The notes beneath the pieces are model-generated. The model was not told the origin of the DNA, made no database searches, and was given only the letters and a program-made list of their open reading frames with translations. Below are positions 8,212 to 40,146 of a DNA stretch of 64,000 nucleotides, one piece after another; the stretch's first letter is position 1, and each line of letters opens with the position of its first letter. The stretch is taken from the NCBI GenBank assembly GCA_963797115.1, contig CAWCOH010000002.1, positions 643,168 through 707,167 on the forward strand, in the 5' to 3' direction. The position numbers were made by a program, and so were the translations under genes. Source of the stretch: an uncultured Alphaproteobacteria bacterium (GTDB taxonomy: Bacteria; Pseudomonadota; Alphaproteobacteria; ATCC43930; CGMCC-115725).

Positions 8212-10152
8212 TTACACCGCCGGGCGCGAAATCACCGCGTTCGCCGGCGCGTCGATCCACATGCGAAACCACAGCTCGAGCATCAAAAGAGCCCACAACT
8301 GGGTATGGTGATCGCGGGTAGCGCTGCAGTGTTCGTCGAGCAAAAGACGGACGTAGTCCGCGCGGAAGACGCCACGCTCGCGCGCGCTCTGCGAGAGCAA
8401 CGTATCGTAAGCAAGTTCCTTGAGCTCGCCGCGGAACCAGTGGTCGACCGGACAGCTAAATCCCATCTTGGGCCGGTAAAGCAGCCCAGCCGGCAAATAT
8501 GGCTGCATCGCTGATTTGAACAGGGATTTGGTGACGCCGCGGTACATCTTGGGGATGCGCGGTATACCCACTGCCCACTCCATCAGAACATGGTCGAGAA
8601 GCGGCGAGCGGGCTTCGAGCCCGTGCGCCATGCTGGCGACATCCACCTTGACCATCAGGTCATCGGGCAGATAGGTGTGAATGTCGGCTCGATTCGCAGC
8701 GGTCACAAGGTCGTCAGCTTCATCAAAGTAGGGATCGAGGAGATCCAGCGTGGAGCCCCTCGATCGCTCGCGCATCGCCTCGCAGTATCCCTCTTCCTTG
8801 TCCCGATCGGCGAATGAAACAAACGTCGATGCGTAGCGTTGCGCCGGAAACTCCTCTGGGACCTGCAAGACACCTCGGATCCGAGGGATCCTCAACCGAC
8901 GCTGCGCCGAGGCCGGTGCCAGAGCGAGAAATCGATCTATTCCGGCCCGGCTCCAGCGCGGCGTTCTGTCGAGCCGTGACAGATAATACAGCGCCTTATA
9001 CCGGTTATAGCCGAGAAAGCACTCATCCCCACCATCCCCATTCAGCGCGACGGTCACCTTGCGACGGGCCATTTCAGAGATGTAATAGGTCGGGATCGCG
9101 GACGGATCAGCGAAGGGCTCGCCATAATGCCAGACAAGACGTGGCAGTACGCTTACCGCGTCGGGGTGGACGACCAGCTCTTCGTGGTCTGTCCCATAGC
9201 GTTTCGCTACCATGCGAGCGTACCGAGTCTCGTCATATTCCTTTGCCGAAAACCCGATCGAGAAGGTCTTGACCTTGCCGCCGCCGGCGCGCGCCATCAT
9301 CGCAACAACGGCAGAAGAATCGACCCCGCCCGACAGAAAAGCGCCGAGCGGCACGTCCGATACGAGACGGAGGCGTACGGCCTCCTCGAGCCGATCGACC
9401 AGCTCGTGCCGTAGCTCGGCGACTGTTCGATGGCGGCGCGCGGAGCGCGGCTCGGGTAAACGCCAGTAACGGATGAGTTCGGGCTCGGTCAACTCTCCTC
9501 CCGGGCGTGCATCGATAACCACATAATGTGCCGCCGGAAGTTTGCAGACGCCGGCAAAGGCGGTGTGCGGTGCCGGCACGTAGCCCAAAGTCAGATAATG
9601 GTCTATGGCGGTTAGTTCCGGCGCGCGCGCCAGACTTGGCCAAGTGAGCAATGCTTTGATTTCCGACGCGAACAGGAAGCCCGCTGCAAACCGGGCGTAA
9701 TAGAGCGGCTTCTTGCCGATCCGATCACGCGCAAGAACCAGGCGATGCGATCGCCGGTCCCAGATCGCCAGCGCGAACATGCCGTGCAATCGGGGGATGA
9801 TCCTTGGCCCCCAGGCCTGCCAGCCGTTAACGATGACCTCGGTATCGCTGCGGCTGCGGAAGCTATAGCCTGCGGCTTCGAGCTCCCGTCTTATCTCTGC
9901 GAAATTGTAGATCTCGCCGTTATAGGTGATCCAAGCAGTCTCGTCCGCGCTTGCCATTGGCTGATGCCCGGCAGGCGACAAGTCGATGATCGACAACCGC
10001 GTATGAGCGAGACCAGCCTGGCGATCGGTCCAGACGCCTTCGTCATCCGGCCCGCGATGCCGCAGCATCGCGATCATCGCCCAGAGGCGGGCCTCGAGAT
10101 CACGATTGGACGCATCTGCCTGGGACAGGAGAAAACCGCTGATGCCGCACAT
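8212..10152 (-). CDS. AsnB-family glutamine-dependent amidotransferase (paralogue 1)
   Basis: 646 aa. N-terminal nucleophile MCGISG, the glutaminase block RLSIIDLS..GHQPM and the PP-loop motif FLSGGVDSS. Confidence 0.93.
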   Translation of the reverse strand: MCGISGFLLSQADASNRDLEARLWAMIAMLRHRGPDDEGVWTDRQAGLAHTRLSIIDLSPAGHQPMASADETAWITYNGEIYNFAEIRRELEAAGYSFRSRSDTEVIVNGWQAWGPRIIPRLHGMFALAIWDRRSHRLVLARDRIGKKPLYYARFAAGFLFASEIKALLTWPSLARAPELTAIDHYLTLGYVPAPHTAFAGVCKLPAAHYVVIDARPGGELTEPELIRYWRLPEPRSARRHRTVAELRHELVDRLEEAVRLRLVSDVPLGAFLSGGVDSSAVVAMMARAGGGKVKTFSIGFSAKEYDETRYARMVAKRYGTDHEELVVHPDAVSVLPRLVWHYGEPFADPSAIPTYYISEMARRKVTVALNGDGGDECFLGYNRYKALYYLSRLDRTPRWSRAGIDRFLALAPASAQRRLRIPRIRGVLQVPEEFPAQRYASTFVSFADRDKEEGYCEAMRERSRGSTLDLLDPYFDEADDLVTAANRADIHTYLPDDLMVKVDVASMAHGLEARSPLLDHVLMEWAVGIPRIPKMYRGVTKSLFKSAMQPYLPAGLLYRPKMGFSCPVDHWFRGELKELAYDTLLSQSARERGVFRADYVRLLLDEHCSATRDHHTQLWALLMLELWFRMWIDAPANAVISRPAV

Positions 10153-10235
10153 TCGTTATAGTCCGATATCGGACGATCGTTCGCCGCCCGGTTGCCGAGA
10201 CGTCCAGCGGGCGCGGAACTCTGAGTTGCGCGGGA

Positions 10236-11447
10236 TCACCTCACGGACACCATCTGATGAAGGGCTGCAAGCCGATGATGGTAGGCATGCCGTTCGCGGA
10301 TCAAATCGTAAGCTGCATCAGCTACCCGGCCGCGCTCCGCCGGATCGCGAAAACGCTCGATTACTTCCCTTATATTGCCGAGATCCGAGTCGAGTGCAAT
10401 GTAGTGCCGGTCAGCCTCTAAAATATCGTTATACCGTCCCCTTAATAAAATCTGGCAAGTTCCTGTCCCAGCTGCGTCGAAATGGCGCGACGAAATGCAC
10501 TTCGAGTAATTGGGACAACGCTCTCGGTTAATAAAGAACCGCGCCTCAATTTCCTCAAAACTCACTAAATTGTCGTGCATTGCCTCGTGCTGTATGGGCA
10601 ACGCCTTCAGCAGGGCCTTTAGCCACTCCTTCATAACATACGGAAGGCGCCGGCTCGCCGCATGGATCAGTCCATCGGCGCGAAGCGTCCCGGCGCCACC
10701 TTTGGATCTGATGTATTCACGGATCTCGAGCGCCGTCCGGTCGTCGCGCTCAAGATACCACGACCCGGCCTCGGTTCCGATCGTCCCCCGGCAATCGTTG
10801 AGAAACGCAGCCCAGCCCGTTCGATCCAATCGGCCACCGTTGTCGATATCTACGCACAATCTGGCTTGGAGCGGGATCTGCGCAAATGCATCATAGACGC
10901 GGTTGCGTTCGTCGTCACCGAGGAAGACTGGATACCGCGCGCTGCGTCCGCCGATATCGATCGACCGCAAAACATCCGCCTTGTCTTTGCGAAACACCTC
11001 GCTATTCAAGGCGTGCGGCAGCGAAAGAACGCAGGCGCCGCTACCCTCATAGAGCCAACGTCCTGTATCCAACGGCAGCTGGGTCCCGACCCATTCGGCG
11101 TTCACCTTTTGCAAAAAGGCGCGCTTTTCGGCGATCGGCGCCCAGGGCAGATTGTATTCGTTGGCAACGAACATCAGGAACCGGCCCCGCCGAGCTTCGA
11201 GAGCCGTGACGAGCGGCTTGATATAATCGAGCGTATCGGCCGAACATGCGTGCAGGGCAATTACCAGCTCCGCCCGTTCAACGGCCCGTCGGGCAGCTTG
11301 ACGCTGATTCCGACTGAAGAGGTTGAAACACGTCACCGCGAAGTGCGGCGAGCGTGCGAATGCGTCGGCCCAATCGAGATAATAGGATGACCGGGTGCTG
11401 TACTGGACGGTCAGCAGGACGGTTTGGATTCGACTTTCGTCGGGCAT
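10236..11447 (-). CDS. CgeB-like glycosyltransferase-fold protein (module 1)
   Basis: 403 aa. The C-terminal block ISSRHFDAAGTGTCQILLRGRYNDILEADRHYIALDSDLGNIREVIERF is shared with 27333-28535, with the N-terminus of the 988-aa protein and with the pseudogene. This pattern fits the Glyco_trans_1_2 / CgeB family. Confidence 0.75.
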   Translation of the reverse strand: MPDESRIQTVLLTVQYSTRSSYYLDWADAFARSPHFAVTCFNLFSRNQRQAARRAVERAELVIALHACSADTLDYIKPLVTALEARRGRFLMFVANEYNLPWAPIAEKRAFLQKVNAEWVGTQLPLDTGRWLYEGSGACVLSLPHALNSEVFRKDKADVLRSIDIGGRSARYPVFLGDDERNRVYDAFAQIPLQARLCVDIDNGGRLDRTGWAAFLNDCRGTIGTEAGSWYLERDDRTALEIREYIRSKGGAGTLRADGLIHAASRRLPYVMKEWLKALLKALPIQHEAMHDNLVSFEEIEARFFINRERCPNYSKCISSRHFDAAGTGTCQILLRGRYNDILEADRHYIALDSDLGNIREVIERFRDPAERGRVADAAYDLIRERHAYHHRLAALHQMVSVR

Positions 11448-12490
11448 CTCAAATAGTCGACAATGACCTGCACCGCTTTGTCCGCTGCATGTCCGTCTCC
11501 AAAAGCGTTGACGTCACGCCGCGGTGCGTAGCCCGGCCCCTTCCATAAGCGGTTCCACCCTGCCGACACCGTCTCCACCCACTCCGTCTCACTCCGCATG
11601 GTGACGCAAGGTATCCGATGGAAATAGGCTTCCTTCTGCAATCCGCCGGAATCGGTGAAGACGGTCTTCGCCGACTGCACCAGCCGATGCATGTCGAGAT
11701 AGCCGAGGGGATCGCAGACGATGATTTCGCCGAGATCGAGCCTCCATTCTGCAATCCGGTTGCGCGTTCGCGGATGCACCGGAAACACCACGACGTGCTC
11801 GCGCGTCAGCGCCTTAAGATAGGCGATTGCCTCGCTTAATGCCTGACGGTCGTCAGTGGTTTCGGCACGGTGCAGAGTGGCGACGACATAGGAACGCGCG
11901 CCGATACCGAACCGATCCAGCACGTCAGATCGATCAAAGTTGACGGCAGCAAACCGGACGGTGTCGTACATCACATCACCGACATGATGCACCCCGTTGA
12001 TAATTCCTTCCCGGCGCAGATTTTCCACCGCGGTTTCGGTGGGGCAGAGCAGGAGAGTGCTGACATGGTCAGCCAACACTCGGTTGATCTCTTCGGGCAT
12101 GCGGCGATTGAAAGACCGCAGCCCCGCTTCGAGGTGGGCGATTGGGAGATGCAGCTTCGCGGCGGCCAATGCGCCGGCGAGCGTCGATGTCGTATCGCCG
12201 GGCACGACCACGAGGTCGGGCGCCTCGGTTACCATGATTTTCTCGAGAGCCTCGATCATCCGACCGGTCATCTTGCCGTGGCTGCCACTGTGGATCCCGA
12301 GGTTCACATTCGGCTCGGAAATCTGCAGCTCGTCAAAAAAGATACGCGATAGGCTCGGATCGAAATGCTGGCCAGTATGGACGAGTATCTCGGTGATACC
12401 GCCATGGGCGGCTATCGCCCGCGACATGGCGGCGGCTTTGACGAATTGCGGCCGTGCACCGACGACCGTGAGGATACGCCACGTCGTCAC
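11411..12490 (-). CDS. wecB: UDP-N-acetylglucosamine (or UDP-GlcNAc3NAcA) 2-epimerase, non-hydrolysing
   Basis: 359 aa with ILTVVGARPQFVKAAAM, HTGQHFD and HLEAGLRSF motifs. Its 4-nt ATGA overlap with the upstream SDR gene suggests translational coupling. Confidence 0.92.
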   Translation of the reverse strand: MTTWRILTVVGARPQFVKAAAMSRAIAAHGGITEILVHTGQHFDPSLSRIFFDELQISEPNVNLGIHSGSHGKMTGRMIEALEKIMVTEAPDLVVVPGDTTSTLAGALAAAKLHLPIAHLEAGLRSFNRRMPEEINRVLADHVSTLLLCPTETAVENLRREGIINGVHHVGDVMYDTVRFAAVNFDRSDVLDRFGIGARSYVVATLHRAETTDDRQALSEAIAYLKALTREHVVVFPVHPRTRNRIAEWRLDLGEIIVCDPLGYLDMHRLVQSAKTVFTDSGGLQKEAYFHRIPCVTMRSETEWVETVSAGWNRLWKGPGYAPRRDVNAFGDGHAADKAVQVIVDYLRCPTKVESKPSC

Positions 12491-13575
12491 GGGTAGACTG
12501 CGCGCAGCTCGGGCAAAAAGCCGGAGTGCTGCAGCATGCAGCGCCGGATCGTCTCTCGATTATCGCGCGTCCAGTCGATAGTGCGCTGAAGGCCCTCGGC
12601 CAGGAGCGTGAGGACGGCAAATTGCAATCTGTCACGAGCCTTGTCCGTCGCGCCGAAGCGTCTGCCCGAGCGGTCCCAGTCGCGGGCCCCGGCAATCGCC
12701 AAGGGAGTGTGATTACTTGTCAAGCGATTGATTAGGCCTGCCAAGTCGAGAATCGACGTCTCCACCCCGGAGGCAAGATTGTAGACCTCGCCAGGCTCGC
12801 CGTTTGCCGCGCAAGCAAGAAGGCCACGCACGATGTCGCCGACAAAAATAAAATCGCGCGTAGCGACTCCGCCGTTTTCAATCGGCAGCGCCTCATCGTG
12901 CAGCGCCTTCCAGATGAAAGTCGGTATGACGTTTCGCCACACCGTATGTGGCGTGCCGCGCCACCGTCCGGCACCAAGGATCTCGCCCGGCCCATAGACG
13001 TTTTGGAACCGCGCCTTCACAACAGGCAGGCCATAGCGTACGAAGTAATAATTACCGTACATCTCGCCAACGAGCTTTGAAATGCTATAGGGGCTATCAT
13101 GGTACAGCGAGACCGGCATGTCTTCGGTCGTGGCACTCGCCTCGTCGAAGGTCTTGATTGCGGCCGCACAGCCGGCAGAAGCATAAACTACCTTCTGCAG
13201 CGAGCGGATACCTTTCAAGCGGTCGAACAGCTTCAGCGTCGTCAAGGTATTGTTGGCGTGATCGGCAAGGGGGTCGTGGATGGATGACTGGTTGCCGTGA
13301 TAGCAGGCAAGGTGAAAGACGAAATCGAGATCATTCGGCAGTGATTTGAGCACTGCGTCGTCAGCGATCGAGCCAAGGATAAATTCAACAGCGGAATGCT
13401 TCGGCACGTTCGCGATATCGGCCGACACCAGATTGTCGACGATAAAGAGGAGTTGCGGACCTTGCGAGAGCAACTGGCGCACAAGGTTTCCACCGACAAA
13501 CCCCGCGCCACCGACCACGAGGATTGCGCTACCCCTTATGCCCGAACCCATCACGACGGCGACTGCGCGGCCCAC
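12487..13575 (-). CDS. NAD-dependent sugar-nucleotide epimerase/dehydratase (extended SDR)
   Basis: Rossmann motif VVGGAGFVGGNL and catalytic YSISK. An alternative start at ATG 13551 would overlap the upstream stop by 1 nt. Confidence 0.85.
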   Translation of the reverse strand: MGRAVAVVMGSGIRGSAILVVGGAGFVGGNLVRQLLSQGPQLLFIVDNLVSADIANVPKHSAVEFILGSIADDAVLKSLPNDLDFVFHLACYHGNQSSIHDPLADHANNTLTTLKLFDRLKGIRSLQKVVYASAGCAAAIKTFDEASATTEDMPVSLYHDSPYSISKLVGEMYGNYYFVRYGLPVVKARFQNVYGPGEILGAGRWRGTPHTVWRNVIPTFIWKALHDEALPIENGGVATRDFIFVGDIVRGLLACAANGEPGEVYNLASGVETSILDLAGLINRLTSNHTPLAIAGARDWDRSGRRFGATDKARDRLQFAVLTLLAEGLQRTIDWTRDNRETIRRCMLQHSGFLPELRAVYP

Positions 13576-14495
13576 GGCTTCAGATGGCTAAAGGTCGCCG
13601 AAACGCCATGCGCGTCGTACCAACAAAGGACGCGTCTGATCGTCTCGGCGAAATCAACCTTGGCCTTCCAGCCAAGCAGCGCGAAGGTGTAGGCGGGATC
13701 GAGCACCACGGCAGCGATGTCATCGGCAGCCACTGGAACCACCTGAACCGGTGTAGCCGTATCGACACCGAGATGCGCCGCTACCTCCTCGAAAACCTCC
13801 TTGATCGAGTGCCCGAGCCCGGTCGACACGTTGAAGATGCCTGTCGGTGCGTCCTCGCGCAGGACTATATCCATCAGATCGATAAAATCGGCCATGTCGA
13901 GGAAGTCGCGCACCGCATCGCTGCAGAAGCATTTCTGGCCGGCCTTGAGCCGCTGATAGAAGGCCGGGATCGGTCCGATCGCAAGACGCGGCCCGCAAAT
14001 GTTGGCAAGACGCAGAGACACCCAGGAGAGCTCGCTCTGGGCGACGTAGGCTTCTCCGGCGGTCTTGCTAATGCCATAGCTAGTAATCGGCCGGGTCGGA
14101 TGATCGGCCGGGATCGGCACACGCTCCGGCCGGCCATAGCACAACGCCGTCTGGAAATTGACGAATCGCTTGACGCCAGCGCGCCTTGCCGCCTCTAGCA
14201 CGTTGATAGTGCCGACCACATTGGTACCCGCGTCCTCGCGCCAGTTCCCTGGATCCTTGTAGGCGGCGGCGCTGTGAATGACATGCGTGGGTGCAAAGCA
14301 GGCAAAGACTTCGTCGACGAAATCACGATCGGCAATCGTCCCGCAACCAGCCGAAAGGCCCGGAACATCGGGCAGAGCTTCGCGTCGACCGGTGGCAAAG
14401 TTGTCGATCGCGAGGATTTCGTGGCCGCGGGGCAGGTAAGTCTCGATCAGGTTCGAGCCGAGACAGCCCGCGCCGCCGGTGATCAGAACCCTCAC
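13551..14495 (-). CDS. NAD-dependent epimerase/dehydratase (extended SDR), tandem paralogue A
   Basis: MRVLITGGAGCLGSNL, IDNFATGRRE and catalytic YGISK. It is a paralogue of the next gene. Confidence 0.88.
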   Translation of the reverse strand: MRVLITGGAGCLGSNLIETYLPRGHEILAIDNFATGRREALPDVPGLSAGCGTIADRDFVDEVFACFAPTHVIHSAAAYKDPGNWREDAGTNVVGTINVLEAARRAGVKRFVNFQTALCYGRPERVPIPADHPTRPITSYGISKTAGEAYVAQSELSWVSLRLANICGPRLAIGPIPAFYQRLKAGQKCFCSDAVRDFLDMADFIDLMDIVLREDAPTGIFNVSTGLGHSIKEVFEEVAAHLGVDTATPVQVVPVAADDIAAVVLDPAYTFALLGWKAKVDFAETIRRVLCWYDAHGVSATFSHLKPWAAQSPS

Positions 14496-15430
14496 GAATT
14501 CCCCTCGAAGCGGAGATGCGTGTAGCCGCCCTGGACCCCTCGGTCCCGGTAATAGGCGACGGTCTCTTCGACAATATCGTCAAGCGGCGTAAAGGTCATC
14601 TCCCCGAAATCGCGTATGGTGCGCGCCGGGTCGAGCAGGATGGTGGGCGCATCGTCGGCTGCAAGCGGCCGGATTTCTGGAGCCGGGTATTCGTTGAGCT
14701 TCATCGCCCGGACCACCGCGTCGTAGAGATCTTTGATCGCAACATCCCGGCCGGAAGAGAAATGGTAGGTGCCGTTCCCGATGCCGTCGGCAGCGCTCAA
14801 TACAATGCGCGCGAGATCCTGCACAAAGACGAAATCGCGCCGCGCCTCGGTGACAAAACAGCGCTTTCCCTGCGACAGCCTCTCGAAAAAAATCGGCAAT
14901 GGGCCGCTGACGTTGCGCGGCCCAATCACATTAGCGAGACGAAAGGTGATCCAGTCGACCCCGCTCATTTCGATGTAGCGCTCGCCGGCTGTTTTGGAGA
15001 TCGCATAGCTGTTGCCCGCCGGATTGACCGGGTGATCCAGCGTGATCGGCTGTTCGAGCGGGTTGGTACCGTAGCACAAGGCGGTCTGAAAGTAGATCAG
15101 CCGGCCGACCTTGTGGCCCTTGCAGGCGCCCGCGACGTTGGCGCTGCCGACGCAGTTGGTCAGGGCATCCGATTCCCAGTCGTCCGGGTCCTTGTAGGAG
15201 GCGGCGGTGTGGACGACCACATCGGGACGAAAATCGCCGACCAGACCGTCGACGATCCGCGCGTCGGCGATGCTCTCCTCGACCAAGCGGAGGCGCGGGT
15301 GCGGCGACAGGTTGTCTCGCCGGCCAGTCGCAAAATTATCGATCGCGACCACCTCGTCGCCGCGGGCGAGCAGCAAGTCGCTGACCGTGGAGCCGACCAG
15401 CCCGGAGCCGCCGGTCACAAGCACCTTCAT
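14492..15430 (-). CDS. NAD-dependent epimerase/dehydratase (extended SDR), tandem paralogue B
   Basis: Start set at MKVLVTGGSGLVGS (ATG 15430). Carries IDNFATGRRD and catalytic YAISK. 4-nt overlap with the downstream gene. Confidence 0.88.
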   Translation of the reverse strand: MKVLVTGGSGLVGSTVSDLLLARGDEVVAIDNFATGRRDNLSPHPRLRLVEESIADARIVDGLVGDFRPDVVVHTAASYKDPDDWESDALTNCVGSANVAGACKGHKVGRLIYFQTALCYGTNPLEQPITLDHPVNPAGNSYAISKTAGERYIEMSGVDWITFRLANVIGPRNVSGPLPIFFERLSQGKRCFVTEARRDFVFVQDLARIVLSAADGIGNGTYHFSSGRDVAIKDLYDAVVRAMKLNEYPAPEIRPLAADDAPTILLDPARTIRDFGEMTFTPLDDIVEETVAYYRDRGVQGGYTHLRFEGNS

Positions 15431-31730: not shown

Positions 31731-33312
31731 TCACTGCGTTTGCACACCGCGGAAGTGGCGGCGAAAGCTTGTCCGCATCCGTCGGAGTGGCGATAATAGC
31801 CGAGACGGGAAAACCTGAGAGAGCCGTACCTGGATCCGAAACAGCGCGAATTTCACTATGGACCTTGACTGGGAGTGGTCCATCTCGCCGACAAGTGGAC
31901 TGGTCTCCCTGATAAATTCAGATTGCACATAACTAAGCTCGCGGGCGAGACGCCCTGTCTCATTGATAAATTCCGATCTTTCAGAGCAGAGTTCGCGGTT
32001 AAGTCGACAGGTTCGTCGGCAAATCTGGATCGCAGACAGTTGAGGTCATGCTTCAGCGCGTCGTTCTCGGCAGAAAGTTGCCGGTACTGATAAAAGATTA
32101 CATCCCGAGGAACTGGCGTCGGCTCCTCCATTACAGTCGGCGACGAGGCGAGAAGCGTCTGACACACTGGTAATGGTACCGCTTGAGGTACGCAGAGCGA
32201 CTGTGTTGCGGCCAACTCCTCACGCTTGCGCCCGATCGCGTCATCGATGGTCGCGACAAAACGATGATAATCGTAATCGGAGGCAACGAGATGGTCGTAG
32301 GCGCGATCCGCCAATGCGTTCAGCCCGTCGATATTGTCGATTTGATCGAGAACGTGATCGACGTTCGAGAAATCTTTTCTCAGTTCGATATAATGCTTGC
32401 CGGATTCCATTATTCCGGAGTAGCGCCCACTGATCAGCACCATCGGCGTTCCCGTTGCCAGCGCCTCGAACGCCCTCGGGGATATTTGGCCCATTTCGAT
32501 GTCATTTTCACGAGGGTCGGCATAATGCCGAAACTCCTCATAGGTTGGTGCGCTACCCTTTTTTAGTTCGAGTTCGTTGTACTTAGGCCGCAGGCTGCCG
32601 TCGAAGTCGAAGATATTCGAACCGCTCTCGGTTCCGAGAGCGGTTCGGCAGCGCCCCAGGAAATCGTACCAAGCCTTGCCATAAAAGCGGCTTATCTCGT
32701 CGGTTTTAATGTCACAATCGATACTTCGCGCCGCACTTATCTCACGCATGCGTCGGCCAATCTCGTATTTGTCGAAGCCTAAGCGCCCGTAATGACCGCG
32801 AATTTGACGTCCCCGATTAGCCGATCGCGATCGGCCTTTGGGCTAATGGTATCCGAGTCCGCCAGCTGACCTTCAGCACCGACGGCACGTAACCGGTCAA
32901 CACGGTGATGAATTCCGTTTCGGGAAACATTCGGCTCGGATAGACAAACTCGTGCGACTGCGACGGCACGCAGGTGAAGACTAGGTGGAAACCGATCTCC
33001 CGAATGGCCTCACGCAGAGCGTTGGTCCGATCGTACTCGTCCTGAACGGCGATTAGGCGAACGCCGCGAAAGCTTTTTGAGAGCGTCGATATATGATCGA
33101 CTTACGTGACCGAAAATACACAGTCTTGCACAATAGCTGTTAAGAACGGCATCGAATTGGTTTAGATCAAAATCGACTTCTACGCCCTGCGTTACATGCA
33201 CGTAGCTGACATCGTATGAGGAGTAACGCTTTATACTCGAAAGATACTGCATGGTCGTCGCCACATGCGTCGCCGCGTTCGAATAGGCGACGAGCAGCCT
33301 GCCGCCTGTCAT
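31731..33312 (-). pseudogene. decayed paralogue of the CgeB-like module and coiled-coil tail of the 988-aa glycosyltransferase
   Basis: Homology to the 988-aa protein continues across at least three frame breaks. (1) 33010-33312 (LLVAYSN...VEVDFDLNQFDAVL) shifts frame near 33080 into FRGVRLIAVQDEYDRTNALREAIREIGFHLVFTCV. (2) A 1-nt insertion gives RPIAIG-TAA at 32817-32819, where IGYRGRQIRGHYGRLGF is expected. (3) The coiled-coil tail RSEFINETGRLARELSYVQSEFIRETS...RTSFRRHFRGVQTQ lies in another frame (31731 to about 31990). Confidence 0.78.
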
Positions 33313-33352: not shown

Positions 33353-35269
33353 TCAGGCGGCGGCCGCGCCGCCGGTTTCCGCCATCGGCGCCGCGATTTC
33401 AGCCGCGGCGCGATCACCGGGAGCATCAGTAAGACCGCGGATGACGACAGCCACCGGTAACTCTACTAATCCCAGTGCGATCGAGCCGCTGTAATCTTCA
33501 TTCACCTTAAAGTAGATACATCGATCCCAGTGACACAAGAAAGGAATTCGATGTGAGTGGGGCCAATGATAGTCGAACATCGGAAGCAGTTCGAAGCTTC
33601 CGACGTATTCTCCCTGGCGTATATTGGGCCGGTCGAGACGAAAGAGAACTTCGGTCTTTCCAAGTGCAAGGCCAGCCTCGAACTTGTGAACGCCGAGAAA
33701 CACACGATTGCCTTGGGCGTCGAAGATAATCCCAGCAAGCCAGCAAATCGGAAGCCGAACTCGAATTTCGATCGTAATCTTGAACGTGATCGCGTCCCCC
33801 AGCCCAAAGATATGCCGGTCTGCCGCGCCGGTGGCCTCGCAAGTGGAAATGCGCAGAAAGCGGGCTTCCTCAGTTTCCCACTTGTCCCGTGGGGCATCGA
33901 GTGGACCGCCATCTGATGGCGCGACATCATTACCCATCGTCGAGCACACATCTGCGACGCCAGTGTCGCCGACGAAAACATCCGGGGCGGTAGGGGCGAT
34001 CGCCACCTCATCAATTCGCCAAACCCGCGTCCTGTCGTTCTGGGTCAGAAGACCGAGGCGTCGAAAACCACCCGGTTCGTGGAGTTCGATTGCGATTTCT
34101 TCCCCCGGCGCGGCATCGTGCTCGATTTCGAACAACCTCGCTGAGCCAGCTAAGTCCGCAGGAACGCGAAAAAATATTGGGGCATGTGCATAAATGCCAC
34201 CAGTGTCTTCCAGACAACGCACGCGGCGCCCAGCGGTGAGGGTAGGCCGGCTCCAGATCATTAAACTGGGGTCAGTTTGGATATAACCCGGCTGCGTTAC
34301 GTCATTGTCCATTGGTTCGCCCAGCCACACCTCAAACCGTTTGCCACCGTCAAAAACAAGCGCCAAGCGATGCACTGCATGGCTGAGCGTGGGCAGACCC
34401 CCGTCCGCTACAACCAAACGAAACAACATTTCTTGCTCGTCGCTGCAACCTTCATCGGAGCCGTCGCGGCGCCGCATGCGTGAGACTGCCTGGCTGGTTT
34501 GGGCCCGCAGCCGCGCCTCCTCGCGTTCGATGACCGAGGCATAATAGGCTTTACTGATGTCGAGCGTCGGTCCTTCCGCCTTGATCCGGCCGCGGTCGAG
34601 CCAGATCGCCCGCTCGCACAACCTCTGCACACTTGAGATGTCGTGACTGACGAACAGGACCGTGGCGCCGGTTTCCTTAGTCAGGCGTCGCATCCGCTCG
34701 GTACACTTGCCCGCGAAATAAGCGTCGCCCGCCCCTAGTATCTCGTCGATGATGAGCACCTCGGGAACAATCGCAGTGGAGGTCGAAAATGCCAGCCGCG
34801 CATACATCCCGGTCGAATAAGTCTTGACTGGCTGGTCGATGAATTCGGCGAGTTCGGAAAAATCGACGATCTCCTCGAAGCGCTCGGCCGCATCGCGCCC
34901 GGTGATCCCTTGATAGGCGAGTGCGGAGTAGATGTTTTGCCGGCCGGTAAACTCAGGGTGGAAGCCGGTACCGAGATCCATCAGCGCCTGGATCGCGCCT
35001 CGGACCCGGACCGAGCCGGAGCTCGGCTGCAACCGTCCGCAGATGATGCTCAGAAGCGTTGATTTGCCGGCCCCGTTTTGACCGATAATGGCGAGGCTTT
35101 CGCCCCGCCGAATCTCAAGTGAAATCCCGCGCAACGCCCAGAACTCGTCGCAAGCATTTTTCGGCAGTGGTAAACCAAGGGCCTCGAACACCCGGTAACG
35201 CGGATGCCGGTAACGCTTGAACACCCGCGAAACGTCGTGCACCGCTATCGCGGTATTCTCCTCAGACAT
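33353..35269 (-). CDS. wzt: polysaccharide ABC-exporter ATP-binding protein Wzt with a long two-part C-terminal extension
   Basis: Walker A GQNGAGKSTLL, the signature region YSTGMYARLAFS and Walker B LIIDEILGAGD. About 390 extra residues follow. The last ~150 (FLRISTCEATG...ITFKITIEI...GIIFDAQGNRVFLGVHKF...LRLDRPNIRQGEYVGSFEL) look like a Wzt_C beta-sandwich carbohydrate-binding module. Confidence 0.9.
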   Translation of the reverse strand: MSEENTAIAVHDVSRVFKRYRHPRYRVFEALGLPLPKNACDEFWALRGISLEIRRGESLAIIGQNGAGKSTLLSIICGRLQPSSGSVRVRGAIQALMDLGTGFHPEFTGRQNIYSALAYQGITGRDAAERFEEIVDFSELAEFIDQPVKTYSTGMYARLAFSTSTAIVPEVLIIDEILGAGDAYFAGKCTERMRRLTKETGATVLFVSHDISSVQRLCERAIWLDRGRIKAEGPTLDISKAYYASVIEREEARLRAQTSQAVSRMRRRDGSDEGCSDEQEMLFRLVVADGGLPTLSHAVHRLALVFDGGKRFEVWLGEPMDNDVTQPGYIQTDPSLMIWSRPTLTAGRRVRCLEDTGGIYAHAPIFFRVPADLAGSARLFEIEHDAAPGEEIAIELHEPGGFRRLGLLTQNDRTRVWRIDEVAIAPTAPDVFVGDTGVADVCSTMGNDVAPSDGGPLDAPRDKWETEEARFLRISTCEATGAADRHIFGLGDAITFKITIEIRVRLPICWLAGIIFDAQGNRVFLGVHKFEAGLALGKTEVLFRLDRPNIRQGEYVGSFELLPMFDYHWPHSHRIPFLCHWDRCIYFKVNEDYSGSIALGLVELPVAVVIRGLTDAPGDRAAAEIAAPMAETGGAAAA

Positions 35270-36047
35270 ATTCGGCGAACACCGGTTTCAGGCGTCGAAA
35301 CAATTCGAAGCCGAGCCAAAATGTGCTGAAGGCAATGACCGTAAAGAACAGCCAGAACCGTGGTGAAAATACTCCGAAGATCAGCACCTGCCGATAAAGT
35401 TCGATTATATAAAATAATGGGTTGAGATAACCGATCGCCAGCAGCTGATGAGGAATCATCTCGCGCGTGTATCCGATTGGAGAGACGATCATCAAGAACA
35501 GCACGAATATGCCGATGGCCTGCGCTGTATCGCGCAAGAAGACGTTCATCGCAGATAAGATCCAACCGACCCCAATCGAAAATATTATCTGCAGCAACAG
35601 CAATGGGATGATCAGGACCTGGGTGAAATGAAACTCCCCGCGGCTCCACAGCGCAAAAAGCAAGCCGACGAGACCGATCGTCATTGATAAAGAGCTAGAC
35701 ATCACAGATTTAACTGGTACTAGCTCGATTGGAAACATCGTGTTCTTGATAAGATGTTTGTTGCTGACTACCGAGCTTACAGAGCTGCCCAACACTTCGG
35801 CGAATCCGATAAATGGTATCAGCCCCGCGAATATAATGAGGATGTATTCGATCGGGGAGTAACTTTGTAGCTGTACTCGTAAAATCAGTGCGTAAATGCT
35901 AGCATAAAGTCCGAGAAAAAGAAACGGATAGAGAATCGCCCAGCTCAAACCGAAGGCGGTCCCGACGTAGCGGGAGCGTATTTCCACGAGGGTTGTGGCA
36001 TACAGGATCCGCCGCGATCGAAACAACAGTCGCAGGGCACTGATCAA
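35262..36047 (-). CDS. wzm: ABC-2 type polysaccharide exporter permease Wzm
   Basis: 261 aa with six hydrophobic segments. It is AT-richer than its surroundings, overlaps wzt by 8 nt and has the typical N-terminal LF.SRR....T..EIR.RY..T.LG..W. Confidence 0.88.
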   Translation of the reverse strand: MISALRLLFRSRRILYATTLVEIRSRYVGTAFGLSWAILYPFLFLGLYASIYALILRVQLQSYSPIEYILIIFAGLIPFIGFAEVLGSSVSSVVSNKHLIKNTMFPIELVPVKSVMSSSLSMTIGLVGLLFALWSRGEFHFTQVLIIPLLLLQIIFSIGVGWILSAMNVFLRDTAQAIGIFVLFLMIVSPIGYTREMIPHQLLAIGYLNPLFYIIELYRQVLIFGVFSPRFWLFFTVIAFSTFWLGFELFRRLKPVFAEYV

Positions 36048-36085: not shown

Positions 36086-37252
36086 TCAGATAAGCGCCTC
36101 GCGCAGCGCGGAAGCGATGAGGTTCTGGATCGACGCGTCAAGATACGGGTGCATCGGTAGACTGAGCACCTCAGCCGCCAGGCGCTCCGATATCGGCAGG
36201 CCATTGCCTGCAGAGGGATAATGGCGATAGGCGGTCTGTTGGTGCAGCGGTTTCGCATAATAGACCGCCGTCGGTATGCCCTGCGCCTTTAGCTTGGCCG
36301 CTACCCCGTCTCGGTTCGCGCCGTCCGGTACACGCACCGTATATTGCGCCCACACGCTGGTGAGACCCGGCGGTGCAGTCGGTACTCGCACGACTTTTCC
36401 GAGCAATTCGCGGTAGATTACAGCCGCCCGGTCACGCGCCGCGATCTCGTCTGCGAAGATCCCCAGCTTCTCGCGGAGCACCGCCGCCTGGATTGTGTCG
36501 AGGCGGGCATTCATCCCGATGCGCACATTGTCGTATTTGTCAGTGCCCTGGCCGTGCACCCGCAGGCTCTTCAACACGGCAGCGGTATCGTCATCGTCGG
36601 TGAAGATTGCACCGCCATCACCGTAACAGCCAAGCGGCTTTGCTGGAAAGAAGCTTGTCGTCGCGATGTCGCCAATGGTTCCGACGTTGCGGCCCTTATA
36701 GACCGCACCCAAACTCTGCGCCGCGTCGCAAACGACCCACAGCCGGTGCGCCGTCGCGATAGCCATGATCTCGTCGTAGTAGGCCGGCAATCCGAAAAGG
36801 TCGACCGGGATGACACCGACCGGTTCGAGCCCGGCTCGCTTGGCCGTGGCGATGCCGGCTTCGAGGCTACCCGGGTCCATGTTGAACGTCTCTTCCTGCA
36901 CATCGACGAAGACCGGGACCGCATCGAACCAGGCCACCACCTCGGCGGTGGCGGCGAAAGTGAAGGAGGGCACCAGTACCGCCTGGCCGGGTTTGAGCCC
37001 TTTGGCAATCAGCGCGAGCCCCAGCGCGTCGGTGCCATTGGCGCAGCTCACCACGTGCTTGGTGCCGCAGAAAGCGCCGAGCTCTTTCTCAAAATCGGCA
37101 ACCTCGGGGCCCATGATGTATTTGCCGTGGTCGACGACGCGTAGGATGGCCTCGTCCATCCGCCTACCGATACGCCGGCGTTGAGCGGCAAGATCGATAA
37201 ACTCGATTGACAGTGCATCCGGTGCTGGAATGGCTGCAGTATCGGGCATCAA
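36086..37252 (-). CDS. DegT/DnrJ/EryC1/StrS-family PLP-dependent sugar aminotransferase (WbpE-like)
   Basis: 388 aa with [24 protein letters not shown] and the [19 protein letters not shown] block that carries the PLP lysine. Confidence 0.92.
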
Positions 37253-38865
37253 ACAATCTCCTCGATCCCATCGGGACCGATCTCGCGATAGCGGCGGCCG
37301 GAGCGTGGACAGACCAGATCGGGCCCGAGCCGCTCGCCTTCATGGCTCATCCAACCGATCCGCCGCGCCGGCACGCCGGCCACCAGGGCAAAGGCAGGTA
37401 CGTCCTTAGTCACCACCGCGCCCGCCGCGATAAAAGCGTACTCTCCGACCGTGTGACCGCAGATGATGGAGGCGTTTGCGCCGATGCTCGCGCCGCGCTT
37501 GACCAAAGTGGCGCGGAACTCGTCTTTACGCTCGATCTCCGCGCGCGGGTTGTTGACATTCGTAAAAACACAAGAGGGGCCGCAGAAAACTCCATCCTCG
37601 AGGGTGACGCCCTTGTAGATCGAGACGTTGTTCTGGATCTTGCAGCCATCGCCAATGATCACGTTGGGACCCACCATCACGTTCTGTCCGAGCGAGCAAT
37701 TACGCCCGATCCGAGTGTGCGGGAGGATATGGACGAAGTGCCAGACGCGGGTCCCCGCTCCGATTTCGCAGGGCTCGTCGATAAAGGCCAATTCATGGAT
37801 TTGCACATCGGAAGCTCGGCACGCCCTGTGCGCCGGCCGCATTGTCGAACGCCCCCGTAGTGCCTCACTCGCGCGCGACAGAACGCCCAGTACGCGCACT
37901 CCCTCGCGGCCGTCGGTGCGCGGTCTGCTGCCGGTTATCACACAATCCAAAAAATGCCGGCATTCGAGGTTCAACGGTTCACCTTCTTCGAGCGGAACCG
38001 GATCGGCCTCGGCCCGCTGCGGCACCGGCAGCGCTTCGCGCCACTCGATCTGGTGCGGATAGAGTAACAGCTTCCGGCTCCAAGGCTGCCCGTCATCGAA
38101 GACCGCCATCGCCCGGTCGCCGATCACAACGAGCTTCTGTTCTTTGAACGGATGCAGCCACGACACAAAGACATGGGCGTGCTCTCCTCCGGGGAACGCC
38201 ATGTGGGTCGTGGTGACGTCTGCAATGGTCTTATGCAAATAATAGCCGCCATGTGCGGTCACCTCGGCAGGCTCCTGTCCGATAAGCGACAGGATCATGG
38301 ATAGGTCGTGCGGCGCGAAGGACCACAGGATGTCCTCCTCGCGTCTTACCTTTCCGAGGTTCAGCCGATTCGAATAGATGTATTCCAGGCGACCGAGCGC
38401 GCCCCGACGCACCAGCGCGCGCAATTTGGTAAAGCCGGGATGGTATTGCATCAAATGGCCGACCATTAGGCGCCGATCCTGGCGCTCTGCGAGAGCACAG
38501 AGCTGTTCGGCCTCGGCAAGGGTCAATGCCAGCGGCTTCTCGACAAAAACATGCTTGCCCGCCTCGATAGCGCGACGCGCGAGCTCGGCATGCACAGGCG
38601 CAGGTGCTGCGATCGCCACGGCGGCGATCGTGGGATCGTGCAGCACTGCCGCGAATTCGACCACCGGGGTATGGTAACGATCGGCGAGCTCGTTTGCCTC
38701 GGCGCGGTTTGGATCGCAGATCGCAGCGAGCGCGCCAAGCTCGGCGAAATTCCGGACCAGGTTCTTGCCCCAATAGCCGCAGCCAATTGCGGCCACCCGC
38801 ACGGGGCGACGCGATTCGCGCCTCGGGATCAACGCCATGCGATTGTCCAAGAGAAATGTCCCCAT
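37249..38865 (-). CDS. fusion protein: Gfo/Idh/MocA sugar-nucleotide 3-dehydrogenase (WbpB-like) + left-handed beta-helix N-acetyltransferase (WbpD-like)
   Basis: The N-terminal ~330 aa carry [17 protein letters not shown] and VFVEKPLA. The C-terminal ~200 aa are hexapeptide repeats ([49 protein letters not shown]...[11 protein letters not shown]). 4-nt overlap with the aminotransferase gene. Confidence 0.88.
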
Positions 38866-38943
38866 GCTACCGCAGTCCGGGTGACGGCAGTGTCACCGGA
38901 GCAGACTGATCTACTAAGGCCGGTGCCGTGGTCGCCCCACGGC
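38863..38943 (-). promoter_or_regulatory. leader between the NusG paralogue and the first biosynthetic gene: two hairpins plus an ops-like motif
   Basis: On the minus strand: hairpin GCCGTGG-n5-CCACGGC (38925-38943) starts 8 nt after the NusG-paralogue stop; hairpin GGTGAC-n6-GTCACC lies within 38877-38899; TGCGGTAGCATG (38863-38874) matches the enterobacterial ops GGCGGTAGCGTG at 10 of 12 positions but includes the start codon of the next gene. Confidence 0.25.
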
Positions 38944-38950
38944 CCGGAGC

Positions 38951-39451
38951 TCAAGCTGCTTCCACCGCCTCCGCGTGGAGCTGAGCACGCACGACCCGTC
39001 CGAGCAATTCGAGCAGCACAACGACGCGATCCTGATCGCGCAACTCGACCAGCCTGCCGACCATGTCCTCAAGCGCCCCTGCGGTCACCCGAACGAGGTC
39101 ACCGAGCCGCAACGATTTGCTCGGATCGAGTTGGTCGAAACCGCCAGCCTTCTCCCGTTCCCGTATCGCGGTCACGATCTCAGATGGCACTGGGGCGGGC
39201 TCATCCCCGGCGCGGATAATATCGGCGACTCCAACCGTCGAAAGGATGGGGCGCCAGCGCATCGACGCCCGATCGATGCCGGCGAAGAGGTAGCGCGGAA
39301 ACAGTGGACGCAGCACCATCTGGTGACGTCGCGCGTGACTGATCCGCTTACGATAGCACGGAAGATAGGCTGAATAACCCTGCCGCAGCAGGTGCTGAAC
39401 CGCCTTGGTCTCGTCACGCGGCCGCGTGTGGACGGCGTACCAGCGCATCAC
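38951..39451 (-). CDS. specialised NusG paralogue (RfaH/LoaP-like transcription antiterminator)
   Basis: 166 aa. NGN domain WYAVHTRPRDETKAVQHLLRQGYSAYLP...LFPRYLF and a KOW-like GDLVRVTAGALEDMVGRLVEL. It lies at the head of the glycan locus and overlaps the MarR gene by 4 nt. Confidence 0.85.
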   Translation of the reverse strand: MMRWYAVHTRPRDETKAVQHLLRQGYSAYLPCYRKRISHARRHQMVLRPLFPRYLFAGIDRASMRWRPILSTVGVADIIRAGDEPAPVPSEIVTAIREREKAGGFDQLDPSKSLRLGDLVRVTAGALEDMVGRLVELRDQDRVVVLLELLGRVVRAQLHAEAVEAA

Positions 39452-40146
39452 CGCGCTGTTTCCTCGACGTGGTCCGTCGATTTCGGCGAAATGCGCAACA
39501 GGGTTGGCGCGACGACGCAGCCGCTTGGCAAGCCGCTCAGCTCAGCCGCTGATAACAAGCGCTCAAAATTGGCTTGTGGTGCTTGCGTATCGGTCACGAT
39601 GATCCCATCGAGCCTGCGGGGACCGGAAAGCGTTAGCGCCGTGTCAACGTCGGCGACCACCGGGAGGCCGCCGCAACGCCGTCCTGCCCGCTCCCGATCG
39701 ACGACGCAGAGTACTTCGATAGCGGTCTCGCCGGCGCTGAGAATTGCGATCTCTGCGAGGTCGCCTGCACCGTAAAGAGCGACCCTGCGCCAGCCGCGGG
39801 CCTCGCATTGCCGAAACAAGGCCGCACAGTCGGTGCGCGCACGGCGAAAGAAATCAAACGACACAGCGAGGTATTCGGTGGTCAGCCGGCTCTTCTCAGC
39901 GAGGCCCTGGGGCGTCAGATAATAAGAATAGCGGTTGATGGGTACCTGGCTCATCTTGATCAGGCCTTTGCGGACGCAGCGGCGCAAATACGCGTTTGCG
40001 AGTCCAACCGCAATGCCTAGGTCGTGCGCCAGCTTGCGCTGGGTGATCGCGCTGTTGCGCTCGATCGATGTGAGCACGCTCAGCACAATGCTCGGGTTGC
40101 CGCCCTCTTCGACTTGACTTTGCTCCCCCACCCCGACCGTCCTCAT
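39448..40146 (-). CDS. winged-helix (MarR-type, EPS-associated) transcriptional regulator with a C-terminal Rossmann-like domain
   Basis: ITQRKLAHDLGIAVGLANAYLRRCVRKGLIKMSQVPINRYSYYLTPQGLAEKSRL is a wHTH. The C-terminal RRVALYGAGDLAEIAIL resembles a nucleotide- or CoA-binding fold. It is the first gene of the co-directional block. Confidence 0.8.
   Translation of the reverse strand: MRTVGVGEQSQVEEGGNPSIVLSVLTSIERNSAITQRKLAHDLGIAVGLANAYLRRCVRKGLIKMSQVPINRYSYYLTPQGLAEKSRLTTEYLAVSFDFFRRARTDCAALFRQCEARGWRRVALYGAGDLAEIAILSAGETAIEVLCVVDRERAGRRCGGLPVVADVDTALTLSGPRRLDGIIVTDTQAPQANFERLLSAAELSGLPSGCVVAPTLLRISPKSTDHVEETAR

Follow-up and report, generated by a model that had tools for sequence, protein, structure and literature searches.

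A wbm-type locus in a 64,000-nucleotide bacterial contig segment, probably for an ABC-transporter-dependent O-polysaccharide, with an exported C5-epimerase homologue

The wbm O-antigen locus of Bordetella combines the ABC-transporter genes wzm and wzt with three genes for glutamine-dependent amidotransferases, wbmC, wbmI and wbmZ (PMC2615507). Its O-chain is a polymer of 2,3-diacetamido-2,3-dideoxy-L-galacturonic acid, partly present as the uronamide (poly L-GalNAc3NAcA/AN) (PMC2615507, PMC2279256). The B. bronchiseptica proteins WbmF, WbmG and WbmH, deposited as PDB entries 2pzj, 2pzk and 2q1w (PMC2279256, Table 2), were proposed to convert UDP-D-ManNAc3NAcA to UDP-L-GalNAc3NAcA (PMC2279256). 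Variable regions of the Bordetella locus have low GC and are exchanged horizontally (PMC3849452), and wbmE is not universal in the genus (PMC2615507). Putative C5-epimerases encoded in bacterial O-antigen and capsule loci were noted already in 2011 (PMC3068255). Here we describe a gene cluster at positions 8212–40146 (minus strand) of a 64,000-nucleotide stretch of contig CAWCOH010000002.1, referred to below as the window. We conclude that it is most likely a wbm-type, ABC-transporter-dependent O-polysaccharide locus of a Gram-negative bacterium. An earlier examination of the letters (the sequence-only reading) had rightly recognized a surface-glycan locus, but its statement that the enzymes map to no described pathway did not hold, as the wbm locus, with its solved O-chain, carries orthologous and colinear H-G-F, WbmI, WbmJ-like and wzm/wzt genes. 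A syntenic locus with a solved glycan, the finding it had named as speaking against it, is thus largely at hand in wbm of B. bronchiseptica/parapertussis. Orthology and synteny are observed here directly, and each enzymatic step, the polymer structure and the attachment to lipopolysaccharide (LPS) are predictions from the sequence.

Open reading frames (ORFs) were called and translated, and all 24 ORFs of the cluster were scanned with Pfam and NCBIfam profiles. They form an unbroken minus-strand run from 40146 down to 8212 and correspond to 22 genes after merging of two split genes, which agrees with the 22 co-directional genes counted before. The tight packing was also borne out, with overlaps of 4 nt at WecB/SDR1, SDR2/SDR3, GT4b/AsnB3, WbpE/WbpBD and NusG/wHTH and of 8 nt at Wzt/Wzm. 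The genes that carry the comparison with Bordetella are the following.

8212–10152, minus strand: AsnB-type amidotransferase 1, last gene of the cluster (Asn_synthase 2e-105; TIGR03108 619 bits, cutoff 817).
12487–13575, minus strand: WbmF orthologue (SDR1; proposed 3,5-epimerase; PDB 2pzj 7.2e-136; 58–60% identity to WbmF).
13551–14495, minus strand: WbmG orthologue (SDR2 oxidoreductase; PDB 2pzk 8.8e-136; 66–67% to WbmG).
14492–15430, minus strand: WbmH orthologue (SDR3 oxidoreductase; PDB 2q1w 7.8e-144; 66% to Bordetella WbmH).
19064–21022, minus strand: AsnB-type amidotransferase 2, orthologue of Bordetella WbmI (start at the methionine of MCGIAG; 53% over 633 aa).
24370–26298, minus strand: AsnB-type amidotransferase 3 (Asn_synthase 5.9e-103 and GATase; TIGR03108 615 bits, cutoff 817).
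28704–31670, minus strand: WbmJ-like large glycosyltransferase of 988 aa (CgeB-like N-module, GT4 domain, C-terminal coiled coil).
33353–35269, minus strand: Wzt ATPase with a C-terminal extension of about 380 aa (ABC_tran; Wzt_C weak, 21.8 bits, cutoff 30.4).
35262–36047, minus strand: Wzm ABC-2 permease, the lowest-GC gene of the locus at 48.6% (Pfam ABC2_membrane).

The Bordetella locus was taken from B. bronchiseptica CP024175 (L084), reached via its WbmF (P0035, 100% identical to 2pzj), and compared by direct blastp; the compared segment was a 10-kb flank, with wbmM–wbmZ, including the terminal-residue modification genes wbmO–wbmZ, lying beyond it, and the names wbmJ (878 aa) and wbmK (866 aa) were assigned by position only. 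Identities between Bordetella and the window were 66% for WbmH, 67% for WbmG, 58% for WbmF and 53% for WbmI/AsnB2. Each of the three SDRs found a different best PDB chain, one-to-one, and they stand in the H-G-F order of Bordetella. The WbmF-like protein keeps His90, Ala131, Gly132, Cys133, Asn213, Tyr161 and Lys165, and like WbmF it has no Ser/Thr in the catalytic triad (Ala131). WbmF-type proteins are numerous, as >7,900 database proteins match WbmF at E ≤ 1e-60, the best 120 at 69–100% identity. Colinearity extends over wzm, the 866-aa gene, the 878-aa gene, WbmI, WbmH, WbmG and WbmF, and the window order differs by two insertions, one of CgeB2-MT-AsnB3-GT4b-GT4a (MT, methyltransferase) and one of two exported proteins. 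The 988-aa glycosyltransferase, with Pfam GT4/GT1 matches at residues 533–841, aligns with the Bordetella 878-aa protein encoded next to wbmI at 42% over 830 aa (bit score 598) and is a candidate chain polymerase. AsnB3 is about 34% identical to WbmC and WbmI, and AsnB1 about 34% to WbmC. As the sequence-only reading had listed, there are three full AsnB proteins and three extended SDRs; each AsnB protein begins with MCG. The presence of Wzm and Wzt, with ABC2_membrane and ABC_tran domains, supports export by this transporter. Wzm itself is 31% identical to its Bordetella counterpart, and the KpsM model gave 30 bits on the cluster vs. a cutoff of 300.

The genes for synthesis of the sugar-nucleotide precursor lie within the same operon.

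11411–12490, minus strand: non-hydrolysing UDP-HexNAc 2-epimerase of the WecB/WbpI/WlbD type (Epimerase_2 3.4e-96).
36086–37252, minus strand: WbpE/WlbC-type aminotransferase (Pfam DegT 1.3e-101).
37249–38865, minus strand: fusion of a sugar 3-dehydrogenase (WbpB/WlbA-like role) with a WlbB/WbpD-type N-acetyltransferase (Pfam GFO_IDH_MocA and Hexapep).

All three had been described before, and the Pfam and NCBIfam scans found each of them. The C-terminal half of the fusion matched WlbB of Bordetella best in the PDB (3mqg, 5e-66). The aminotransferase matched WbpE (3nyu, 7e-101), its best match being 4qgr (3e-132), and the 2-epimerase exceeded the cutoff of TIGR00236 (280 vs. 210 bits). Together with the wbm orthology, the 3mqg and 3nyu matches and the wecB model support a 2,3-diacetamido uronic acid chemistry with amidation, as had been proposed. 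The N-terminal half of the fusion had only generic oxidoreductases as best PDB matches, with no chain named WbpB or WlbA at E ≤ 1e-15, and scored 150 bits against the NCBIfam archaeal UDP-GlcNAc 3-dehydrogenase, under the cutoff of 450.

Further glycosyltransferase-type genes of the locus are as follows.

10236–11447, minus strand: stand-alone CgeB-like (Glyco_trans_1_2) protein 1 (PF13524, 39.5 bits).
21477–22940, minus strand: GT4 glycosyltransferase a (Glyco_transf_4 / Glyco_trans_1_4).
23045–24373, minus strand: GT4 glycosyltransferase b (Glycos_transf_1 2.4e-24 and Glyco_transf_4).
27333–28691, minus strand: stand-alone CgeB-like (Glyco_trans_1_2) protein 2 (PF13524, 28 bits).

GT4a and GT4b are the two GT4 enzymes reported earlier, yet the GT4 domains number three because the 988-aa protein also carries one. 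GT4a shows 38% identity to the GT4 domain of the Bordetella 878-aa protein. CgeB-like protein 2 shows 29% identity to the C-half of the 866-aa protein and has no NCBIfam match, while the Bordetella 866-aa protein shares 34–40% with the CgeB-like modules and the remnant described below. CgeB-like protein 1 matched nothing in the PDB, even at E ≤ 1, and falls in no NCBIfam family, so that no function is assignable to the CgeB-like modules. This protein is 68% identical to the product of the gene after WecB in the metagenomic locus L090, and the 37-nt WecB/CgeB1 overlap (10236–11447 / 11411–12490) is kept in L090 (19925–21016 / 20980–21773), which suggests translational coupling.

The pathway that we propose would be transcribed from an operon headed by an RfaH-like antiterminator and a MarR_EPS-type regulator. 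UDP-GlcNAcA would be made by a WbpA-type dehydrogenase encoded elsewhere, the fusion enzyme would oxidize C3 and N-acetylate with the WbpE-type aminotransferase acting between the two steps, and the WecB/WbpI-type enzyme would 2-epimerize the product to UDP-D-ManNAc3NAcA. WbmH and WbmG (C4 oxidation and reduction) together with WbmF (3,5-epimerization) would then give UDP-L-GalNAc3NAcA, and the AsnB-type amidotransferases would turn carboxylates into uronamides. An undecaprenyl-linked primer, started by a transferase encoded elsewhere, probably receives an adaptor from GT4a and GT4b, and the WbmJ-like 988-aa enzyme would extend the chain. Wzm/Wzt would export the finished chain and a ligase encoded elsewhere would join it to lipid A-core. 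Two proteins that Bordetella lacks, the C5-epimerase homologue and the NHL propeller, probably bind or modify the polymer in the periplasm once it has been exported.

The closest whole-locus relatives were three metagenomic loci (L088–L090), reached via homologues of the NHL protein, in which core genes have 70–86% amino-acid identity. AsnB2 is 82–86% identical to their counterparts, the 2-epimerase 70–71% (L088 and L090) and the 988-aa enzyme 49–51%, and in L089 the first regulator gene and the RfaH-like gene correspond at 74% and 76%. As these loci repeat the layout, the window is one member of a family of environmental wbm-like operons. A second wbm-like contig was seen in L085 (ENA contig_49048, 4682–16400), which holds a GLCE-like gene 53% identical to that of the window, a WbmI-like AsnB (62–66%), a WbmH-like gene (84%) and an IS1595 transposase; many of its genes are fragmented, probably by assembly errors.

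The locus has a mosaic structure, in which a conserved core stands beside exchangeable genes of lower GC, namely wzm, wzt, the WbmJ-like gene, the WbmK remnant and the C5-epimerase homologue. Core genes have a GC content of 61% and a third-codon-position GC (GC3) of 73%, variable genes 56% and 63%, and flank genes 63% and 78%. The AT-richer segments noticed by eye earlier are real: wzm has 48.6% GC, the WbmK-like remnant 51–53%, and the 988-aa gene and the C5-epimerase homologue 55% each, against 63% outside the locus. Wzm and Wzt also have other affinities than the core, as both are nearer to distant loci with a GLCE-like gene (Desulfocapsa, Firmicutes, Planctomycetes) than to L088–L090. Thus, Wzm shares 54% identity with Desulfocapsa L004 and 35–36% with L088–L090. 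Wzt, including its C-terminal domain, aligns full-length to Wzt of the C5-epimerase-homologue loci L004, L009, L011, L018, L013 and L023, while against L088–L090 the ATPase domain alone aligns; the C-terminal domain covaries with the presence of the GLCE-like gene. AsnB2 reaches 44–50% identity to AsnB of Firmicute, Desulfocapsa and Planctomycete loci. The GC/GC3 contrast and the transporter affinities support the horizontal exchange of parts of the locus that the sequence-only reading had suspected.

Two exported proteins are encoded between the SDR triplet and the WbmI orthologue.

15474–17291, minus strand: exported six-bladed NHL/YVTN beta-propeller protein (transmembrane/signal helix, propeller, extra beta region, C-terminal helical bundle).
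17332–18999, minus strand: exported GLCE-like protein (C5-epimerase homologue) of 555 aa (PF06662 3.2e-33, 115 bits, cutoff 23).

The PF06662 match (C5-epim_C, E 3e-33) confirmed that the latter is a homologue of the animal heparan-sulfate C5-epimerase GLCE, as claimed before; its start is probably at 18999 (555 aa) and not at 19146. Its N-terminus, judged by eye, resembles a signal peptide, and we therefore infer that the protein is periplasmic. The sole sequence matches in the PDB were the zebrafish and human GLCE entries 4pw2 and 6hzz at about 1e-15 (4pw2, 7e-16). The AlphaFold model (pLDDT 85, pTM 0.84) shows about 135 aa inserted as a beta-sandwich, for which GLCE has no equivalent. The best Foldseek matches of this model were again GLCE (28–30% identity, root-mean-square deviation 2.5 Å over 158–172 columns), with AGE-family epimerases and glycoside hydrolases, which have the same toroid fold, ranking lower. 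The catalytic residues of GLCE, E499, Y500, N510, Y560 and Y578 in human numbering, were taken second-hand from PMC13308652. E223, N236, Y283 and Y438 of the window protein are invariant in 26 homologues, while the position of Y500 (224) is I, V, L or F; the match of Y578 to Y438, in a YHxxH motif, was judged by eye across the insertion. The NHL propeller protein has no Pfam or NCBIfam family above threshold (a sub-threshold NHL match only). Its family counts 40 members in total, all metagenomic, unnamed and uncharacterized, and is present in L088–L090. An AF2 model (pLDDT 84) found only generic NHL propellers with Foldseek, hence no chemistry can be inferred for this protein.

What the GLCE-like protein does can be read in two ways. 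It is possible, though doubtful, that it is not an epimerase at all but a lyase, a hydrolase or a non-catalytic binder that, for example, trims or holds the exported chain. This would fit the replacement of the Tyr500 equivalent by I/V/L/F in all 26 family members, the insertion of about 135 aa that GLCE does not have, and the (alpha/alpha)-toroid being common to hydrolases and 2-epimerases, with GH76, GH8 and cellobiose 2-epimerases among the lower Foldseek matches. The counterparts of E499, N510, Y560 and Y578 are, on the other hand, invariant, and GLCE is both the sole sequence-level PDB relative and the top structural match. Only tentatively, and as a somewhat unlikely reading, we propose that the protein is a polymer-level C5-epimerase working on acetamido-uronic/uronamide chains after Wzm/Wzt export, as part of a cross-phylum kit that would amidate, export, epimerize and in some cases deamidate. 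If so, it may act on L-GalNAc3NAcA(N) in the window and may turn ManNAc(3NAc)A into L-gulo residues in loci without WbmFGH, and AsnB-type amidation may be functionally coupled to the epimerization. This would be the first post-export epimerization of an O-antigen. The proposal draws on the covariation of the Wzt C-terminal domain with the GLCE-like gene and on the AsnB and Wzt counts, the Firmicute locus and the Burkholderia locus described next.

The GLCE-like family is of modest size: at E ≤ 1e-3 it has 1,642 cluster representatives among 1.84 billion, and a threshold of 1e-30 leaves 59. Genome loci were collected with an alignment-based scan, single-sequence peptide patterns having given none. 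In the 80 loci with a GLCE-like gene (L002–L081), AsnB was found within 10 kb in 38, WecB in 16, a related GT4 in 15 and Wzt in 14; many of the 38 AsnB loci are in Acidobacteriaceae, and the count is given without a background rate. In L011 (Candidatus Allofournierella merdipullorum, 9911–15402) we observed a 927-aa lipoprotein in which two C5-epim_C domains stand in tandem (185 bits), followed by a transglutaminase-core ORF (31 bits, above cutoff) and then a sub-threshold ORF (16.9 bits, cutoff 23), which recall WbmE. The same locus also holds Wzm/Wzt, a methyltransferase, a GT4 enzyme, WbpD/E, WecB and AsnB. Together with the counts above, this arrangement suggests that amidation and GLCE-like activity may concern the same polymer class after export. 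A different setting was seen in Burkholderia multivorans (L007, OZ244258.1:1541172-1562674), where the gene at 9914–11518, encoding the closest GLCE-like homologue among GTDB representatives (32%, near full length), adjoins Baseplate_J, a baseplate hub gp41 domain and a phage N-terminal domain. The vicinity of a prophage baseplate is a typical place for serotype-converting genes, and this homologue may be a prophage-borne modifier of surface glycans.

Returning to the O-polysaccharide reading of the whole locus, several points weigh against it. The dehydrogenase half of the fusion has no close relative among characterized WbpB/WlbA proteins, so that the 3-oxidation step is assigned by context only. 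As WbpA, the initiating transferase and the O-antigen ligase are not in the window, precursor supply and LPS attachment are assumed. Bordetella WbmA, WbmB, WbmD and WbmE have no counterpart in the window locus, and the distal Bordetella half wbmM–wbmZ falls outside the compared segment. For WbmE, the periplasmic transglutaminase-like deamidase, neither a blastp match to any locus protein nor a Transglut_core match was found. A weak blastp match between Bordetella WbmD and the NHL propeller (E 8e-4) was dismissed by profile comparison (probability 4%). TIGR04176 and TIGR03108 lean to exopolysaccharide (EPS) families, both with scores under their cutoffs. The methyltransferase and the WbmK-like gene are broken, and the glycan may therefore be altered or not made.

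The EPS leaning comes in part from the head of the operon, where the following features stand.

38863–38874, minus strand: ops-like TGCGGTAGCATG, candidate only (10/12 bases match).
38951–39451, minus strand: RfaH-like NusG paralogue, candidate specialized antiterminator (Pfam NusG 2.7e-20).
39448–40146, minus strand: winged-helix regulator of the MarR family EPS-associated type, first gene of the cluster (Pfam HTH_24 1.3e-8).

Both regulators had been named by the sequence-only reading and were found as NusG/RfaH-like and MarR_EPS-like proteins. The winged-helix regulator scored 61 bits against NCBIfam TIGR04176 MarR_EPS, under the cutoff of 88, and the NusG paralogue 111.7 bits against TIGR01955 RfaH (cutoff 144.5) and 87 bits against UpxY (cutoff 100). 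The E. coli ops element is GGCGGTAGCGTG, and the candidate TGCGGTAGCATG lies in the 85 nt that separate the RfaH-like gene from the following gene, whose ATG it overlaps. With one mismatch allowed, the ops 8-mer occurred 61 times across the window vs. 60 expected; as it is not enriched, the position alone of the candidate is suggestive.

It is unlikely, though not negligibly so, that the same chemistry serves a capsule or a secreted exopolysaccharide whose outer-membrane passage uses components encoded elsewhere. The first regulator best fits “MarR family EPS-associated” and two AsnB paralogues best fit “XrtA/PEP-CTERM system amidotransferase”, but these models stay under their curated cutoffs (61 vs. 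88 bits; 615–619 vs. 817). The window has no ligase, and monoderm Firmicutes, in which LPS cannot be the product, carry the same set of genes. Yet KpsC/S/E/D, Wza/Wzc and PEP-CTERM/XrtA genes were not found in the window with Pfam/NCBIfam, and KpsC/S/E/D-type domains, which would mark a group 2 (Kps-type) capsule, were seen neither in the cluster nor in the scanned flanks. A long C-terminal extension of Wzt, as present here, is typical of O-antigen transporters that recognize a capped chain; the Wzt_C match is weak. The sole characterized orthologous locus makes O-antigen (PMC2615507). The host itself appears diderm, as the flanks hold PagL, a TonB-dependent receptor and ExbB; the PagL-type lipid A 3-O-deacylase gene (48966–49502, minus strand) lies 9 kb from the locus, with the other two further on, and the only use of these genes here is to indicate that the host has LPS. 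DUF1194 and PhaR, also encoded in the flanks, hint that the host is an alphaproteobacterium, which is probable. Between O-polysaccharide and capsule, a choice that the sequence-only reading left undecided, the balance now leans to O-antigen, as the orthologous locus is one for O-antigen and Kps-type genes are lacking.

The state of two genes and the neighboring mobile DNA raise the question of whether the glycan is still made.

26308–27318, minus strand: class I S-adenosylmethionine-dependent methyltransferase with an in-frame TAA at 26803–26805 (Pfam Methyltransf_11/25 on the N-terminal part).
31734–33312, minus strand: decayed WbmK-like pseudogene with a CgeB-like module and a coiled-coil tail (tblastn).
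40277–44390, strand unspecified: mobile-element debris comprising a DDE transposase fragment (sub-threshold), the central domain only of an integrase, and IS21 istA/istB (Pfam).

The methyltransferase gene was correctly reported earlier, but as a single reading frame it is interrupted by the TAA (GVI, stop, HTPDPE). The four CgeB-like modules are present as gene types, but the fourth (31734–33312) is a remnant with at least three frameshifts and its 5′ part gone. In tblastn, the Bordetella 866-aa and L088 701-aa proteins match it in three frames (33297–33067, 33077–32811 and 32821–32105), a fourth piece (32066–31734) resembles the coiled-coil C-terminus of the 988-aa glycosyltransferase, and the N-terminal 200–370 aa of WbmK-like homologues have no counterpart. 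The decayed integrase/IS region adjoining the locus was confirmed, its IS21 part matching IS21 copies of plasmids at 74%. For the locus itself, no matching plasmid was found. At the right end of the window there is a serine resolvase gene (63309–63875), and near the left end an ORF (783–1388) falls just under the Pfam threshold for DUF5681, a family also seen in the L001 prophage; further mobile DNA may flank the window.

These observations would suit a decaying, horizontally acquired island whose glycan is defective or no longer made, for which there is a precedent in ovine B. parapertussis Bpp5, devoid of O-antigen owing to frameshifts in wbmO and wbmI (PMC12243275). We regard this as rather improbable. 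The stop in the methyltransferase, the frameshifts and 5′ truncation of the WbmK-like gene and the IS21 and integrase debris next to the locus speak for it, but the other 20 genes, including those of all sugar-nucleotide enzymes, the glycosyltransferases and the transporter, are intact, full-length and of coding-type GC3. The broken genes are moreover of a strain-variable kind, wbmK being replaced by a methyltransferase in some Bordetella (PMC12243275), and the stop and frameshifts could be assembly errors.

That the enzyme combination matches no described polysaccharide system is very unlikely. In favor of this reading, the C5-epimerase homologue, the NHL propeller, the stand-alone CgeB-like proteins, GT4a/GT4b and the regulators have no counterpart in the Bordetella part compared, and each locus protein looked up in a collection of 15 billion proteins forms a cluster of its own at 90% identity. 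Against it, a locus whose product is solved contains orthologues, in matching order, for the sugar-nucleotide pathway, the amidotransferases, the main glycosyltransferase and export, and C5-epimerase homologues in O-antigen/capsule loci were catalogued in 2011 (PMC3068255).

For the remaining parts of the window, the absences stated in the sequence-only reading were reproduced: no Pfam or NCBIfam match to a phosphoglycosyltransferase, WbpA, Wzx/Wzy/Wzz, a ligase or outer-membrane export (OPX)/KpsCSED proteins was obtained, either in the cluster or in those flank ORFs that were scanned. The flank ORFs that reach 400 aa encode fumarase, the TonB-dependent receptor and a DUF4336 protein, apart from one (1515–2756, 413 aa) without a Pfam family. 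The 430-nt gap between GT4a and the WbmI-like gene (21023–21476), in an otherwise tightly packed operon, holds short direct repeats (ctgcagcggg, twice) and no recognizable gene was found in it; it could contain the remnant of a gene or a promoter internal to the operon. In scans for promoters and terminators, the matches did not exceed those in shuffled sequence, except that one half had slightly more terminator-like hairpins (27 vs. 17.4 ± 4.7 in shuffles), and none of these sites was used as evidence. No tRNA or Rfam family was found in the window.

The main value of the analysis is corrective, as a locus said to map to no pathway can be matched, one gene after another, to a characterized O-antigen pathway, with L-GalNAc3NAcA and its amide as the predicted sugars. 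The wbm chemistry is not a Bordetella oddity, since environmental bacteria also carry complete wbm-like operons, which include regulators of their own. What interest remains concerns the accessory exported proteins: the GLCE-like family is strikingly associated with AsnB and Wzm/Wzt across phyla and, if it consists of epimerases, could explain the origin of C5-epimeric acetamido-uronic acids in bacterial glycans.

Compared with GLCE, the window homologue likely has a diacetamido-uronic/uronamide polymer as substrate instead of heparosan. AlgG is a periplasmic alginate epimerase that acts on the polymer after export. An analogy in function only can be drawn to AlgG and to WbmE, a Sec-exported enzyme acting post-export on a uronic-acid polymer being common to all (WbmE: PMC2615507). 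In fold they differ from the GLCE-like protein, WbmE being a transglutaminase-like deamidase and AlgG a beta-helix, and neither is present in the window. Like other bacterial candidates, the GLCE-like gene sits in a locus of the O-antigen/capsule type (PMC3068255).

The metagenomic loci L088–L090 share with the window the wHTH and NusG regulators, the WbpBD fusion, WbpE, Wzm, Wzt, methyltransferases, the NHL protein, the WbmJ-like gene, AsnB, GT4, AsnB2, WbmH-G-F, WecB and CgeB1. They differ in having no C5-epimerase homologue within the 20 kb compared, a shorter Wzt of another type (476–488 aa), intact methyltransferases, an intact WbmK-like protein in two of three (L088 and L090) and a different gene order in the middle section. 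Of the P. aeruginosa Wbp / Bordetella Wlb pathway to UDP-ManNAc3NAcA (WbpA, B, E, D, I), the window has the E, D and I types. Unlike in that pathway, its dehydrogenase is fused to the acetyltransferase, the B-type role would fall to a GFO/IDH/MocA domain, and no WbpA is encoded in the window. The other Wlb enzymes likewise have assigned steps in the supply of UDP-ManNAc3NAcA in Bordetella, and there this precursor comes from the neighboring wlb locus, while in the window the WbpB/D/E/I-type genes are inside the operon. The Bordetella assignment for WlbD has been published (PMC2279256).

Relative to Bordetella wbm, the window adds the exported GLCE-like protein and NHL propeller, two stand-alone CgeB-like proteins, two GT4 enzymes, the broken methyltransferase and the RfaH-like and MarR_EPS regulators, and it has only a frameshifted, 5′-truncated remnant of the WbmK-type gene that is intact (866 aa) in Bordetella. 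On present sequence comparison, the C5-epimerase homologue, the beta-propeller, GT4a/GT4b, the stand-alone CgeB-like proteins and the regulator pair are left unexplained by the Bordetella system. The low-GC variable genes of the window mirror the wbm variable regions, and the 878-aa and 988-aa proteins share one architecture, a CgeB-like N-module followed by a GT4 domain. Both loci have in common the adjacent H-G-F triplet, three AsnB amidotransferases, Wzm/Wzt and low-GC variable segments.

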